Assembly (NCBI RefSeq): GCF_024502345.1
Contig: NZ_JALDNN010000001.1
From: Escherichia coli
GTDB lineage: Bacteria > Pseudomonadota > Gammaproteobacteria > Enterobacterales > Enterobacteriaceae
Strand: one strand, 5' to 3'
Length of the DNA: 64,000 nucleotides
A program made the position numbers and the translations under genes. This document shows positions 1 to 56,031 of the stretch, piece by piece. Every line of letters starts with the position of its first letter. Position 1 is the first letter of the stretch. The notes under the pieces were generated by a model. It had not been told where the DNA came from, did no database searches, and saw only the letters and a list, made by a program, of their open reading frames with translations.

Positions 1-2
1 AA

Positions 3-1118
3 ACGTTTTTTGTCAAATTTATTGAACAACTGAAAGGTATTTCGGTTGAGGATGATGTTGAATTCAATTTTTTTGAATTGGGTGGTTCCGGATATCTCGA
101 AAATCCAACTACGGATTTGATGGCTTTGTTTATGGGAGCCCAGAAAATGGTGCCGCCATGGTTGCTCAAAGCATTGCTATGTTGCCTAGATGATTCCCTC
201 GATGTTGATGAAATTGATTTCACTTCTCTGGAGCTAATGAGAGAGGCCCGAACAGAAGATGGGAAATATATTGATATTCTTATCAGACATGATGAATTCA
301 TTATAGGTATTGAGCATAAAGTTCTGGCTGATACATATAATCCTTTTCCCAGCTATGTAAGTCTCATTGATAGTTACGGCGGCAACAATCAAAAACTATT
401 TCGCTGTATATTAAAGCCTGACGGTAACAGCGCTAAAGGCGTAGACGGTTGGCAACTGATCAATTATTCACTGCTGCTGGAAACCGCCATTCGACGTCTG
501 GGGTTAGAGATGATGAATCAAGAGTTCAGCAAGTGGACTTTTTTTTATCAGGAGTTTTTAAGTCATCTTAAAAAATTGAGTGAGGTTAGTATGGATAAGG
601 TATCTGATAAAAATGTGGAGTTTGTCACTGAAAATTTCACAGCTTTGATAAAATCGGTTCAATTGCTGGAAATGTACCAAAATGCTATCACCGAGGAAGC
701 TAAATCGGTTGTCTCAGAGGTATTGCCTGATATTCATATTGCAACAGGTATTAATAACTGGAAGGGTTACTATAAAGCAATTCATCTGATGCCGGGATGC
801 TGGGGGCAAGGTAAAACAGGAATTACGTTAGTTTATCGCCCTTCAGAGGATGGTCGAGATGAAGCTGAGTTCTATGTATATGGATGGATACATTCAGATG
901 ATTACCCTGAAGTTAATGCACTAAAAGAAGAAATAAGAGTTGCTTTAAGTGCTGGAGATTTCATTCCAACAGCTAGCCCTGAGGACTATGAAGTATCAAT
1001 TACTGGGAAGGGGAAAGTGCTTGAACTGAGTTTTTGGGGGAATACGAGAAGCAAAAAAGATGCACTGGTTCTTCTTAAGGATATGACTAAGTGGATGGAC
1101 TCAAAAATAAGAACATAA
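3..1118 (+). CDS. Hypothetical protein, 5'-truncated at window edge; PD-(D/E)XK-type nuclease motif (YIDILIRHDEFIIGIEHK)
   Basis: Frame is open from nt 3 with no in-frame stop before the track ORF at 78 (TTG), so the true start is upstream; stop TAA at 1116-1118; AT-rich codon usage. Confidence 0.7.
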   Translation, partial: TFFVKFIEQLKGISVEDDVEFNFFELGGSGYLENPTTDLMALFMGAQKMVPPWLLKALLCCLDDSLDVDEIDFTSLELMREARTEDGKYIDILIRHDEFIIGIEHKVLADTYNPFPSYVSLIDSYGGNNQKLFRCILKPDGNSAKGVDGWQLINYSLLLETAIRRLGLEMMNQEFSKWTFFYQEFLSHLKKLSEVSMDKVSDKNVEFVTENFTALIKSVQLLEMYQNAITEEAKSVVSEVLPDIHIATGINNWKGYYKAIHLMPGCWGQGKTGITLVYRPSEDGRDEAEFYVYGWIHSDDYPEVNALKEEIRVALSAGDFIPTASPEDYEVSITGKGKVLELSFWGNTRSKKDALVLLKDMTKWMDSKIRT

Positions 1119-1222
1119 AGTAATATGACTGAGTGATGACGATCTTTTTTAAATTGTGGATTATTAGGCTGGTAATTGAAGCGCCGAATAGACAGATATT
1201 AGAATAAAAGGAGAATATTCAA

Positions 1223-2404
1223 ATGATTTATCAGTGTGATACTTGCAGTAGAACGACTTTTGAGGTTAATTGTCCCTGGTGTAGTGGAGTTTCGCCTGTA
1301 AAAACGTCTGCATGGGGTTCAGCATCATCGACCTCACAAGCAATAGATATACAACGTATGACACCATTGAATCCATCGTTTTATCCAGAGTTTCAGTATC
1401 GTTCAAAGGGTGTTCTAAAAGATCTATTTGGGAAAAAGAAAGAGCAAACTCAGCTTAATCAATTGCTTGAAAATGTTCTCGAAAAATACTCCAGTTTAAA
1501 AGATCCATATTTTACTAACTTCATTTACACTTCCAGATTCTCACATAATAATAAATCGGAAGCAGATTACTCAACAGATAATGGTACATACTCCGAATTA
1601 CAACTTTTCCGTGAGGTGTTGGTCAGAAAAGGGTTCAATGAGCTTGAAGAGTTACCTGAGCTATTAGATAAATTACTCCTTACCACGTCATTTAACGCTC
1701 TTTATTATGGTTTCGCTAAGGAAGTTAAACGGCATATTAAATCTACACTTACTGAATCCTTGAAGTCATGGATTGAGGAAGCGGGTACCACTTTTAGGGC
1801 AGATCTTTCATTGTTTCTATTCTATATATGGAGCAATAAAATAGAGTTCTCATCAGTAGAGTTCAATGAAAAAGCGGAGGCTACGCCTGGTGTTCCTTTA
1901 GTTTCATTTGATGAAGTTAAAAAATACTTAGCTGTGTGCGAACATATTTATTTTGATATTCTGGTTGATAGATTAGCTACACGGCTCGAACATTTTAACC
2001 CTAACAAATTCGTCACCATGTATTTAGTTGATGCAATGGACGGTTTCCAGTTTGAAGATTTCCTTGTGGAAGTATTCCAGACTATGGGCTATGACGTCAA
2101 AGAAACCAAGAGAACGCAAGATCAGGGGGCAGATCTCTTCGTCACTCGATTTGGTAAGGATATGGTTATTCAGGCGAAAAATTATTCTGGTTCTGTAGGT
2201 AACTCGGCGGTGCAGCAGGTGATCTCTGCTAAAACATTCTATGGTTGTGATGAGGCGATGGTTGTGACTAATTCCTACTTCACTCGCTCTGCGAAAGAGT
2301 TAGCTGAATCAGCCTTGGTACGTCTGATCGACAGGGATGAACTGCAAAAGTATCTGGATGATTACAATCAGAAGATAATTGAAGATTTCCAGTCAAACTC
2401 GTAA
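1223..2404 (+). CDS. Zinc-ribbon protein with C-terminal Mrr-like (type IV restriction endonuclease-like) catalytic domain
   Basis: 393-aa ORF; SD aaggag upstream of ATG; N-terminal CDTC...CPWC; C-terminal GADLFVTRFGKDMVIQAKNYSG...LIDRDEL resembles the Mrr_cat core (D ... QxK). Confidence 0.75.
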   Translation: MIYQCDTCSRTTFEVNCPWCSGVSPVKTSAWGSASSTSQAIDIQRMTPLNPSFYPEFQYRSKGVLKDLFGKKKEQTQLNQLLENVLEKYSSLKDPYFTNFIYTSRFSHNNKSEADYSTDNGTYSELQLFREVLVRKGFNELEELPELLDKLLLTTSFNALYYGFAKEVKRHIKSTLTESLKSWIEEAGTTFRADLSLFLFYIWSNKIEFSSVEFNEKAEATPGVPLVSFDEVKKYLAVCEHIYFDILVDRLATRLEHFNPNKFVTMYLVDAMDGFQFEDFLVEVFQTMGYDVKETKRTQDQGADLFVTRFGKDMVIQAKNYSGSVGNSAVQQVISAKTFYGCDEAMVVTNSYFTRSAKELAESALVRLIDRDELQKYLDDYNQKIIEDFQSNS

Positions 2405-2589
2405 CTTTGCAGTCATATAGATATAGCAAAGGACAGGTAGGCCTCCGTGAGAGGGGGACTTACCTGTGCAGATTCTGTGCTCAAAGTTATCCAAGTCTAT
2501 CTATTTACTGCCAATTACAGTAAAATGAGTAAACAATTACAGCAAAGTTTCGCAATGCACTGCTATGTAACTCATTGATCCTGCGTAGA

Positions 2590-2645
2590 ATTTAAAATCC
2601 CTCGGCGTTCGCGCTGTGCGGGTTCAAGTCCCGCTCCGGGTACCA
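2590..2645 (+). repeat. attR-like partial tRNA-Leu (leuZ) copy: anticodon loop to 3' CCA only
   Basis: atttaaaatccctcggcgttcgcgctgtgcgggttcaagtcccgctccgggtacca matches the 3' half of E. coli leuZ; the preceding sequence does not match the 5' half. Confidence 0.8.
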
Positions 2646-2687
2646 TGGGAAAGATAAGAATAAAATCAAAGCAATAAGCAGTGTCGT

Positions 2688-2713
2688 GAAACCACCTTCG
2701 GGTGGTTTTTTTG
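2688..2713 (+). terminator. Rho-independent terminator downstream of the tRNA 3' end
   Basis: Stem accacc-ttcg-ggtggt followed by a T-run. Confidence 0.75.
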
Positions 2714-2840
2714 TGCCTGCAACTTGTCGTTACACCCTCCTTAATTTTTAATCACCGGCAAAGCCACTCAAAAAGTATCTCTGATACGGACCGGCATGTA
2801 AGATAGGTGCTGGCGAGTTGAGATCCACAAGGAAAAACGT

Positions 2841-3506
2841 ATGAAAACGGGACCGTTAAACGAAAGTGAGTTGGAATGGCTGGACGATATTCTGACCAAA
2901 TACAACACTGACCACGCCATCCTTGATGTGGCGGAGCTGGACGGTTTATTGACGGCGGTGTTGAGTTCTCCGCAAGAGATTGAACCGGAACAGTGGCTGG
3001 TTGCCGTGTGGGGTGGGGCTGACTATGTGCCGCGCTGGGCGTCAGAGAAAGAGATGACGCGCTTTATGAACCTGGCTTTTCAACATATGGCCGATACCGC
3101 AGAGCGTCTGAACGAATTCCCGGAGCAGTTTGAGCCGTTATTCGGCTTGCGAGAAGTTGATGGCAGCGAGCTGACGATTGTTGAGGAGTGGTGCTTTGGC
3201 TATATGCGGGGCGTGGCACTTTCTGACTGGTCAACATTGCCCGATTCGTTAAAACCAGCGCTGGAGGCGATTGCGCTGCACGGTACTGAGGAAAACTTCG
3301 AGCGGGTAGAAAAGATGTCGCCAGAAGCGTTTGAAGAGAGCGTAGATGCCATTCGACTGGCGGCGCTTGATCTACATGCGTACTGGATGGCGCATCCGCA
3401 GGAAAAAGCTGTTCAGCAACCGATCAAAGCAGAAGAGAAACCGGGGCGTAACGATCCTTGCCCGTGCGGTAGTGGTAAGAAATTTAAGCAGTGCTGCCTG
3501 CATTAA
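2841..3506 (+). CDS. yecA: SEC-C motif protein YecA (UPF0149)
   Basis: 221 aa; C-terminal [17 protein letters not shown] metal-binding motif; matches K-12 YecA. Confidence 0.93.
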
Positions 3507-6701: not shown

Positions 6702-6953
6702 ATGTCCCAGCCGCTGAATGCCGATCAGGAACTGGTTTCTGATGTGGTTGCTTGCCAGTTGGTTATCAAACAAATTCTGGATGTTCTCGATGTAATCGCG
6801 CCCGTTGAAGTTCGCGAAAAAATGTCCAGCCAGCTGAAGAATATCGACTTTACTAACCATCCCGCCGCCGCAGACCCGGTCACCATGCGGGCAATCCAAA
6901 AAGCCATCGCGCTGATTGAACTCAAGTTTACCCCACAAGGCGGATCCCATTAA
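6702..6953 (+). CDS. yecJ: DUF2766 protein YecJ
   Basis: 83 aa matching K-12 YecJ. Confidence 0.9.
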
Positions 6954-7031
6954 AAAACCGCTGCTTCAAAAAGATGAGGCAGCGGTTTCTCAAAAACTTC
7001 ATCGGCGCAATGCATTAGCGCCGATGTATGA

Positions 7032-10919: not shown

Positions 10920-14272
<3,353 letters not shown>

Positions 14273-27291: not shown

Positions 27292-27296
27292 TTTGT

Positions 27297-27365
27297 ATTG
27301 CCTGATGTGGCGTGACCACGTCATATCAGGCGGTCTGATAAGGTGATGACGCCGCATCCGACAAA
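27297..27365. repeat. REP (repetitive extragenic palindromic) elements
   Basis: gcctgatgtggcgtgaccacgtcatatcaggc and gatgacgccgcatccgaca palindromic units. Confidence 0.7.
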
Positions 27366-49338: not shown

Positions 49339-49468
49339 TCGGATTGGTCGCTCGCACCGCATCCGACATTGGCAGTGTGCCTGATGCGACGCTATTCGCG
49401 TCTTATCAGGCATATACCAGAGATAGCGAACCGTAGGTCGGAAAAGGCGCTCGCGCCGCATCCGACAT
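49339..49468. repeat. REP/BIME cluster (three palindromic units)
   Basis: gtcggattggtcgctcgcaccgcatccgac; gcctgatgcgacgctattcgcgtcttatcaggc; gtaggtcggaaaaggcgctcgcgccgcatccgac. Confidence 0.8.
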
Positions 49469-54458: not shown

Positions 54459-54545
54459 AAAAGCCTCTCGCGAGGAGAGGCCTTCGCCTGATGATAAGTT
54501 CAAGTTTGCTTCAGAATATTCGAAATCTGTTGAACTATCATTGAA

Positions 54546-54585
54546 CTGTAGGCCGGATGTGGCGTTTTCGCCGCATCCGGCAACG
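54546..54585. repeat. REP element
   Basis: ctgtaggccggatgtggcgttttcgccgcatccggcaacg. Confidence 0.75.
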
Positions 54586-54588
54586 TAC

Positions 54589-56031
54589 TTACTCTACCGT
54601 TAAAATACGCGTGGTATTAGTAGAACCCACGGTACTCATCACGTCGCCCTGGGTGACAATCACCAGGTCACCAGACATCAAGTAACCTTTATCGCGCAGC
54701 AGATTAACCGCTTCGCTGGCAGCTGCTACGCCGTCATTAGCGCTATCAAAGTGCACCGGCGTAACGCCACGATAGAGAGCAGTCAGGTTCAGCGTACGTT
54801 CATGGCGCGACATGGCGAAAATTGGTAGACCAGAGCTGATACGGGAGGTCATCAGCGCGGTACGACCCGATTCGGTCATGGTAATGATCGCCGTAACGCC
54901 TTTCAGGTGGTTAGCTGCGTACATTGCTGACATGGCAATAGCTTCTTCCACATTGTCGAACTGAACGTCCAGACGGTGTTTAGAAACGTTGATGCTCGGG
55001 ATTTTTTCCGCACCCAGGCAAACGCGCGCCATGGCTGCAACAGTTTCTGACGGATACTGCCCAGCGGCAGTTTCTGCAGACAGCATCACAGCGTCAGTAC
55101 CATCCAGAACGGCGTTTGCTACGTCCATGACTTCTGCACGCGTCGGCATCGGGTTAGTAATCATTGACTCCATCATCTGGGTCGCCGTGATTACCGCGCG
55201 GTTAAGCTGACGTGCACGACGGATCAACGCTTTCTGAATGCCGACCAGTTCCGGGTCGCCAATTTCCACACCGAGGTCGCCACGTGCAACCATTACCACG
55301 TCAGAGGCGAGGATGATGTCATCCATTGCATCCTGGCTGCAAACGGCTTCCGCACGTTCAACCTTGGCAACAATTTTCGCATCACATCCTGCATCGCGTG
55401 CCAGGCGACGGGCATAGTTCAGATCTTCGCCACAGCGTGGGAAGGAGACAGCCAGGTAATCTACGCCAATCAACGCCGCAGTCTTAATGTCTGCTTTGTC
55501 TTTTTCGGTCAGCGCTTCAGCCGACAAACCGCCGCCAAGTTTGTTGATACCTTTATTGTTGGAGAGGGGACCACCGACGGTGACTTCGGTGAACACTTTC
55601 ATGCCCTGAACTTCCAGTACTTTTAACTGGACGCGACCATCGTCCAGCAGCAGGATGTCGCCAGGCACAACGTCAGCAGGCAGGCCTTTGTAGTCGATAC
55701 CGACTTTTTCTTTGTCGCCTTCACCTTTACCCAGGTTGGCGTCGAGCAGGAATTTATCCCCAATATTGAGGAAAACTTTGCCTTCTTTAAAGGTGGATAC
55801 ACGGATTTTGGGCCCCTGGAGGTCACCCAGAATAGCCACATGACGCCCCAGTTTTGCGGCAATCTCACGAACTTTATCCGCGCGCATTTTGTGATCTTCA
55901 GGCGAGCCGTGAGAAAAGTTCATACGTACAACGTTGGCACCCGCCGCGATAACTTTTTCAAGGTTATTATCGCGATCTGTTGCTGGGCCTAACGTGGTAA
56001 CGATTTTTGTTCTGCGAAGCCTTCTGGACAT
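54589..56031 (-). CDS. pykA: Pyruvate kinase II
   Basis: Internal start [16 protein letters not shown] gives 480 aa; the track ORF is extended by 47 aa. Confidence 0.95.

Follow-up and report, generated by a model that had tools for sequence, protein, structure and literature searches.

In E. coli, transcripts that end by Rho-dependent termination carry stable stem-loops at their 3' ends, which have neither a U-tract nor an A-tract and are followed by sequence with a mild excess of C over G (Dar and Sorek 2018, PMC6061677). Such a stem halts PNPase and RNase II after diffuse termination further downstream (PMC6061677). Pipolins of E. coli are integrated at a Leu-tRNA gene between att-like direct repeats and are reservoirs of defence systems (PMC7385651, PMC11551731). 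The main text of PMC11551731 does not mention a hairpin, an inverted repeat, or a terminator, and PMC7385651 does not mention a hairpin. A "leuZ-associated island" is listed for one APEC strain (PMC4313913).

The DNA analysed here (the window) is a stretch of 64,000 nucleotides of the E. coli chromosome around yecA, tyrP, and ftnA. The hairpin occupies positions 2433-2467 on the + strand, with the 5' arm at 2433-2446, the loop GUGAGA at 2447-2452, and the 3' arm, which contains a bulged A at 2458, at 2453-2467. RNA folding gave 14 bp, including two G.U pairs. The inverted repeat acaggta...tacctgt noticed in a first-pass annotation of the window indeed exists: ACAGGTA at 2433-2439 and TACCTGT at 2461-2467 are the outer arms of the hairpin, and a repeat search recovered the identical arms (inverted repeat I1). 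However, that annotation had placed the structure at 2440-2476, which is 7-9 nt too far right, and about 35 nt downstream of the stop of gene 2, whereas the hairpin starts 28 nt past the TAA at 2402-2404. Because of this shift, the fold of 2440-2476 alone gave only the inner stem (-8.4 kcal/mol).

The RNA folding that had been proposed as a check confirmed the structure once the true span was used. The + strand RNA folded at -24.0 kcal/mol, compared with -11.7 ± 2.4 kcal/mol for shuffled sequences (z = -5.1), and none of 200 shuffles was as good. The - strand RNA, in which both G.U pairs turn into A.C mismatches, folded at only -14.5 kcal/mol. With DNA folding, values of -8.5 and -5.6 kcal/mol were obtained, and the arms are 79% complementary as DNA. 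The hairpin, whose surroundings contain 38.6% G+C, is real and non-random. When all 40-nt windows of the 64-kb window were folded, nine loci including the hairpin reached -22 kcal/mol or lower on the + strand. The other loci are REP-like, terminator-like, or within coding sequence: those at 27293-27338, 49373-49418, and 54541-54592 look REP-type (GCCTGATG/GCCGGATG), that at 6949-6994 has the look of a terminator (AAAAAACCGCTGCCTCA...), and the strong folds at 12899, 30443, 40139, and 46363 are probably in coding sequence.

Folding of 2405-2500 also gave a smaller stem-loop of 6 bp, CTTTGC...GCAAAG, at 2405-2431 on the + strand, directly after the gene 2 stop. In the commonest E. coli allele (about 130 genomes; the sequence L011 reads ...ATATAGCACAGG...), a 5-nt deletion removes this smaller stem-loop, and the same deletion lengthens the main stem, forming a perfect 9-bp GCACAGGTA/TACCTGTGC.

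As a G+C-rich stem-loop past a gene, the hairpin resembles an intrinsic terminator and falls in a similar energy range. It is nevertheless not an intrinsic terminator, because no U-tract follows the stem; the bases there are GCAGATTCTGTGCTC (also given as GCAGAUUCUGUG and GCAGATTCTGTG), as the first-pass annotation had recognized from the absence of a T-run. The upstream sequence, AUAUAGCAAAGG, contains no A-tract, and a terminator scan found no site at the hairpin on either strand. The true intrinsic terminator is that of leuZ, 220 nt downstream (stem 2689-2708, T-run to 2712). A promoter/terminator scan and a search for the IHF consensus gave nothing at the hairpin site, and the covariance models of Rfam 15 had no match in 2400-2600, even at E ≤ 1. 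REP elements are also exonuclease barriers. REP/BIME sequences are extragenic palindromes of similar stability, and the REP-like hairpins of the window score similarly; in contrast to these, the hairpin occurred at a median of one place per genome (maximum two) in 245 of 5,426 genomes, always in the same locus type, and being single-copy it is not a REP element. Compared by eye, it is also presumably unlike the REP consensus.

The gene preceding the hairpin, gene 2 (1223-2404, + strand, 393 aa, from the ORF list), is the last cargo gene of an island and closes a run of eight + strand genes. Its protein has N-terminal Cys pairs and a Mrr-type restriction endonuclease domain (Pfam Mrr_cat, 7e-30; NA-iREase1, 8e-16), and the gene is annotated as "restriction endonuclease" in strain CT02. 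Together with gene 1 (PDDEXK_4), it looks like an uncharacterised defence pair. By composition counts, Rho might load on a C-rich, G-poor untranslated stretch at 2468-2545 on the + strand: in windows of 78 nt whose starts lie at 2460-2500, the C/G ratio was 1.36-1.5 with 13-14% G, compared with a ratio of 0.65-0.7 upstream, which is a mild excess. A GTG-start ORF of 43 aa (2447-2578) spans the att arm of the island described below. It is probably spurious, since other arm variants have a 1-nt indel inside it.

The island is delimited by a 130-bp att direct repeat at 2590-2719 (+ strand), which was defined by alignment with the intact leuZ and its downstream copy in attL of CT02. The repeat consists of the 3' part of the tRNA-Leu(UAA) gene leuZ (2590-2645, starting in the anticodon loop and reaching CCA) and of its terminator (2689-2712). 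ARAGORN found no complete tRNA in the window, which places window 1-2719 at the far end of the island and the intact leuZ off the left edge. According to the ORF list and the CT02 annotation, the first core gene beyond the island is yecA (2841-3506, + strand). Positions 1-2836 of the window are identical to CT02. The intact leuZ of CT02 is found 27.4 kb further left, with a separate copy of the tRNA 3' part and terminator after it. Between the repeats, CT02 carries genes for an integrase, an 866-aa DNA polymerase, a second recombinase, and an HTH protein, and a rightward defence run composed of type I R-M, M48 peptidase, DUF262, PD-(D/E)XK, and the Mrr-like gene 2. For the integrase, which is encoded next to leuZ, Pfam gave Arm-DNA-bind_3 (2e-14) and Phage_integrase (8e-24). 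The 866-aa "DNA polymerase", whose gene is outside the window and which was considered as the primer-independent family B DNA polymerase (piPolB) of pipolins, had no Pfam match. Judged by its integration at a Leu-tRNA gene and its 130-bp direct repeat, comparable to the att-like repeats of pipolins (PMC7385651, PMC11551731), the leuZ-integrated island of CT02, whose far end is window 1-2719, matches the pipolins described for E. coli. The island is inserted immediately beside the chromosomal yecA; in CT02, a gene for a "YecA family protein" (L001, 10884-11567, outside the window) also lies between hsdS and hsdR of the type I R-M operon of the island.

A conserved terminal arm of about 127 bp (2463-2589, + strand) precedes the att repeat, as determined by blastn and the alignment of 11 tails. 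In a distant blastn search, the 180 nt after gene 2 had matches in 686 of 5,426 E. coli genomes and were found at full length in 184, the carriers of the full tail having mostly two alleles. Most alignments started at query positions 57-61, corresponding to window 2461-2465. Ten further loci were fetched, of which eight had arm-adjoining cargo unlike that of the window; the cargo among the fetched loci comprised the MZA system, dCTP deaminase, Hhe, AAA+HNH, DUF262, and IS-disrupted ends. Despite these differences, the approximately 127 bp from 2463 to the att repeat were common to all ten. The arm contains a direct repeat, CAATTACAG, at 2512 and 2534 (D1) and the sequence GCAATGCACTGCTAT at 2552-2566. 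Variable defence genes cluster in the slot that separates the att arm from the last backbone genes (window 1-2404; L003-L010, L133, and L134); depending on the strain, this hotspot holds MZA, anti-phage dCTP deaminase, SIR2, Hhe, AAA+HNH, or DUF262. The hairpin is a landmark that marks, to the base, the border of the variable defence cargo and the conserved arm of the leuZ family. The first-pass suggestion of an island-end structure accordingly holds for the location, since the hairpin adjoins the conserved arm of the leuZ island, with 123 nt left to the att repeat, and shares bases of its 3' arm with an att-arm motif; it holds for the location only.

This motif, the tandem CCTGTGC-N4-TCTGTGCTCA at 2463-2483 (+ strand), forms the outer edge of the conserved arm and is a putative pair of integrase arm-type sites. 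It is unique in the window, where 0.01 occurrences are expected by chance, and its overlap with the 3' arm of the hairpin (2453-2467) is limited to the last 5 nt of the latter. Neither the 5' arm nor the inner stem belongs to the conserved arm; both fall in the variable DNA towards the cargo. The same motif was found 8-9 bp beyond the repeat in attL of CT02, ZYB62, and an Enterobacter MAG. Written as CCTGTGC-N4-YCTGTGCTCA, the family includes window 2463-2483, L012 19009-19030, L188 27884-27905, and L031 at about 1187-1208. The attL motif is followed by GCAATGAGCTGCAAT, which resembles GCAATGCACTGCTAT, and a GCAATG-N3-TGCWAT element follows the tandem motif in both att arms. This arrangement suggests that the tandem motifs are arm-type sites, about -125 and about +140 bp from a presumed crossover in the anticodon loop, at which the integrase would bind. 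A contig scan with TGTGCNNNNYCTGTGCTCA over 298 Gb had the Enterobacter attL (L031) as its only useful yield, nearly all matches being due to chance because the pattern is too short for 298 Gb. A metagenome scan with the arm pattern, together with a viral scan, added few further junction types. More useful than the hairpin itself are two by-products of the analysis, the candidate arm-type site pair in both att arms and the modular end of the island.

Versions of the hairpin at other loci were examined for their association with gene 2 or with the arm. In TOK-001, the hairpin is intact (-22.8 kcal/mol), although 9.8 kb of MZA genes come before the arm. EC1722-1 has a diverged but fully paired version after gene 2, CCAGGTAAGTTTCC GTATCA GGGGACTTACCTG (13 bp, -20.7 kcal/mol), which is separated from the arm by a dCTP deaminase module. 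Intact versions follow gene-2 copies that are near-identical or 89% identical, even at 2.4 or 9.8 kb from the arm. In CFSAN061762, a canonical bidirectional terminator stands at the end of gene 2, and a leftward SIR2 gene comes next. The copies beside the arm in CFSAN061762 and NT1F10, into which no + strand gene reads, have a broken outer stem (-16 and -14 kcal/mol). The hairpin is therefore intact when apart from the arm and broken beside the arm without a + strand gene, so that its integrity tracks close gene-2 relatives more than arm contact.

This association does not extend far beyond close relatives. Thirteen loci were fetched from other genera and from metagenomes; together they hold ten additional gene-2 homologues with identities of about 78-89%. 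In Pantoea sp. M_9, gene 2, hairpin, and arm are arranged as in the window. In Yersinia rochesterensis, the gene is intact, the hairpin has decayed to -7 kcal/mol, and the arm has decayed too. In homologues at 75-85% identity (Kosakonia, Klebsiella, Dickeya, Pectobacterium, other Pantoea, and metagenomes), the hairpin was absent and the downstream structures were unrelated. The idea that the hairpin is a conserved 3' UTR element of the gene-2 family was rejected, because among the ten homologues only that of Pantoea sp. M_9 carries it, the Yersinia one being decayed.

All 12 related versions folded better on the + strand. In an alignment of ten versions, seven pairs varied on one side, always by wobble exchange, and the pairing-keeping changes were C to U opposite G, G.U to A-U, and U.G to U-A. 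No pair was altered on both sides in this alignment; 87.1% of its cells were paired compared with 86.8% in shuffles, and the covariation score was not above the shuffle control. Shared ancestry alone can therefore explain the conservation. Between E. coli and Pantoea sp. M_9, the identity was 80-86% in the stems, 29% in the loop, and 68% in the upstream UTR. The 3' half of the hairpin is better conserved than the 5' half, as is expected if the constraint acts on the att arm and not on pairing. The pattern of conservation falls short of proof but is compatible with selection on a sense-strand RNA structure.

We tentatively favour the interpretation that the hairpin protects the 3' end of the defence operon mRNA as a stem-loop without a U-tract, with a probability of roughly 45%. 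It would lie in the 3' UTR of the rightward defence operon (type I R-M, DUF262, PD-(D/E)XK, and Mrr-like gene 2). RNA polymerase would pass the gene-2 stop and the hairpin without release, because there is no U-tract, and would terminate later, either after Rho loading at 2468-2545 or, as a backstop, at the leuZ terminator (2689-2712). The 3'-5' exonucleases PNPase and RNase II would then shorten the tail until they reach the stem base (about 2467-2470), and the stem would set and shield the steady-state 3' end of the mRNA. The 3' half of this stem is formed by the opening bases of the conserved att arm, the first CCTGTGC motif among them, and the 5' half lies on the variable cargo side. Transcription across the hairpin, the involvement of Rho and exonucleases, and the effect on mRNA stability are what we infer from the sequence; the structure of the hairpin, its strand bias, its position, and its context are shown by the analysis.

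The hairpin shares with the class of Dar and Sorek (PMC6061677) a stable fold near the stop codon, the absence of U-tract and A-tract, and C>G downstream. It differs from that class in lying in horizontally acquired DNA, in that half of its stem is an att-arm motif and a canonical terminator follows 220 nt on, and in being known here from sequence alone. We prefer the protective stem-loop because of the + strand bias of the fold, its position 28 nt past a + strand stop, the excess of C over G downstream, and the integrity of the hairpin with gene-2 relatives. These points, with Yersinia as an exception to the last, also favour, indirectly, the RNA-stability element that the first-pass annotation had offered as one possibility, whereas the lack of compensatory covariation gives it no help. 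The distant homologues without the hairpin, its decay in Yersinia, and the missing covariation count against a role in the mRNA. In addition, the canonical terminator 220 nt downstream could alone provide a stable 3' end. U-less 3' stem-loops have already been mapped by the hundreds in E. coli, and this hairpin itself matters little. If it does stabilise the mRNA, the end of the island can give a ready-made 3' end to whichever cargo is last.

A second explanation, which we hold to be somewhat unlikely, is that the hairpin has no function of its own and is a fortuitous or hitchhiking palindrome, produced for example by a small inverted duplication beside the arm, and retained only because the end of the island is of recent origin and is passed on by transfer and recombination. 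The lack of compensatory changes and the pairing statistics equal to the shuffle control fit this explanation. Furthermore, the length of the G-run ranges between 4 and 7 G, which slippage would produce, the 5' arm has been freely lost in L002, L003, L134, and Yersinia, and the whole tail is confined to the 184 genomes of 5,426 mentioned above. On the other hand, a 14-bp stem with a z of -5.1 is unlikely to arise by chance in AT-rich DNA. The hairpin has been kept in E. coli, in the diverged lineage EC1722-1, and in Pantoea, with stems that outconserve the loop, and all its imperfections are wobble-compatible on the sense strand only, which argues against a structure without function.

It is more doubtful that the hairpin acts at the DNA level in recombination. 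Its 5' arm might be a third, inverted arm-type site (GCACAGG), or the integrase, an excisionase, or a DNA-bending host protein might recognise the whole palindrome at the outer border of attP/attR. As in the arm sites of the lambda/P4/SXT type, the 3' arm overlaps the tandem motif that opens the arm and recurs in attL of three strains, and the integrase of the island has an arm DNA-binding domain. The 5' arm agrees with the inverted copy of the site at 7 of 7 positions in the commonest allele, in which the perfect 9-bp GCACAGGTA/TACCTGTGC is formed, and at 6 of 7 positions in the window; the variants with SIR2 or IS disruption still have a remnant of the hairpin adjoining the arm. However, unlike such sites, of which those proposed here are putative, the 5' arm and the inner stem are outside the conserved arm, and the complementarity reaches inner-stem bases that do not belong to the motif. 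The copy of the motif in attL has no such partner. The spacing between the arms varies from 7 to 26 nt among variants, which makes a poor fit to the fixed site of a protein dimer. Moreover, the arms have only the 79% complementarity and the weak DNA fold noted above, the wobble pairs favour one strand in 12 of 12 versions, and the hairpin is intact when apart from the arm.

Shuffle tests of the junctions between cargo and arm, which covered 10 sequences representing 8 independent junction types, bear on the same question. The junctions outside the window family and L004 were no more stable than shuffles (Fisher p = 0.41). In the real sequences, the first motif had a pairing partner upstream slightly more often than in shuffles (Fisher p = 0.009 with the 8 types and 0.023 without the window family), and in ZYB62 a co-varying pair, CACAGATA/TATCTGTG, takes the place of ACAGGTA/TACCTGT; this trend may be a weak lead for a role at the DNA level. 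A hairpin at every arm-variant junction was considered and rejected, because only the window family and the unrelated 9-bp hairpin of L004 beat shuffles. In line with the protective stem-loop, two other variants of the island have hairpins of their own that lack a U-tract and lie past the last + strand gene; that of L004 is immediately ahead of the arm, and that of L009/ZYB62 directly follows the stop codon.

A bolder view, which we regard as highly improbable, makes the stem-loop a working part of the pipolin attachment region, and not of the mRNA, that incorporates the outermost integrase arm site. Transcription of the defence operon, or extrusion of the hairpin in the excised and replicating circle, would in that case modulate integrase binding, excision, or priming by the DNA polymerase of the element.

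Finally, a retroregulator like lambda sib, which would control the integrase in the excised circle alone, or a hairpin for single-strand recombination that would mark where new modules are inserted, is largely refuted by the anatomy and hardly tenable: the hairpin lies by an attachment site, just across it from the integrase end and parted from the integrase gene through integration as in lambda, and in two composite islands the MZA and dCTP deaminase cargo starts right after ...TACCTGTG, but, unlike in lambda, int is upstream of the hairpin on no transcript, cargo transcripts through the hairpin in the circle would reach the leuZ terminator copy of the island before int, the - strand hairpin is weak, and for insertion the single-stranded DNA fold of -8.5 kcal/mol and the TOK-001 junction count against it. 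At that junction (L133 11314-11379; L189-L192), the MZA module is joined to the hairpin via the truncated left end of ISEc52 (IS3 family) with a 7-bp microhomology, ACCTGTG, followed by IS903-like remnants. Site-specific insertion of defence modules at the hairpin was rejected, the junction having the truncated ISEc52 end and the microhomology of an ordinary deletion.

Two further observations concern the ends of the island. An arm variant of the L008 type, about 80% identical to window 2463-2590, was present on 21 plasmids of E. coli, Citrobacter, Klebsiella, and Raoultella, and BLAST against plasmids gave nothing beyond copies of this variant; a fragment of the island end has therefore moved onto plasmids. 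In attL of ZYB62 (L188 27717-27803), the reconstituted leuZ has the T-stem GTGTGGG...CCCACTC, compared with GTGCGGG...CCCGCTC in the attR fragment. This compensatory change shows that the 3' half of the tRNA comes from the island itself.
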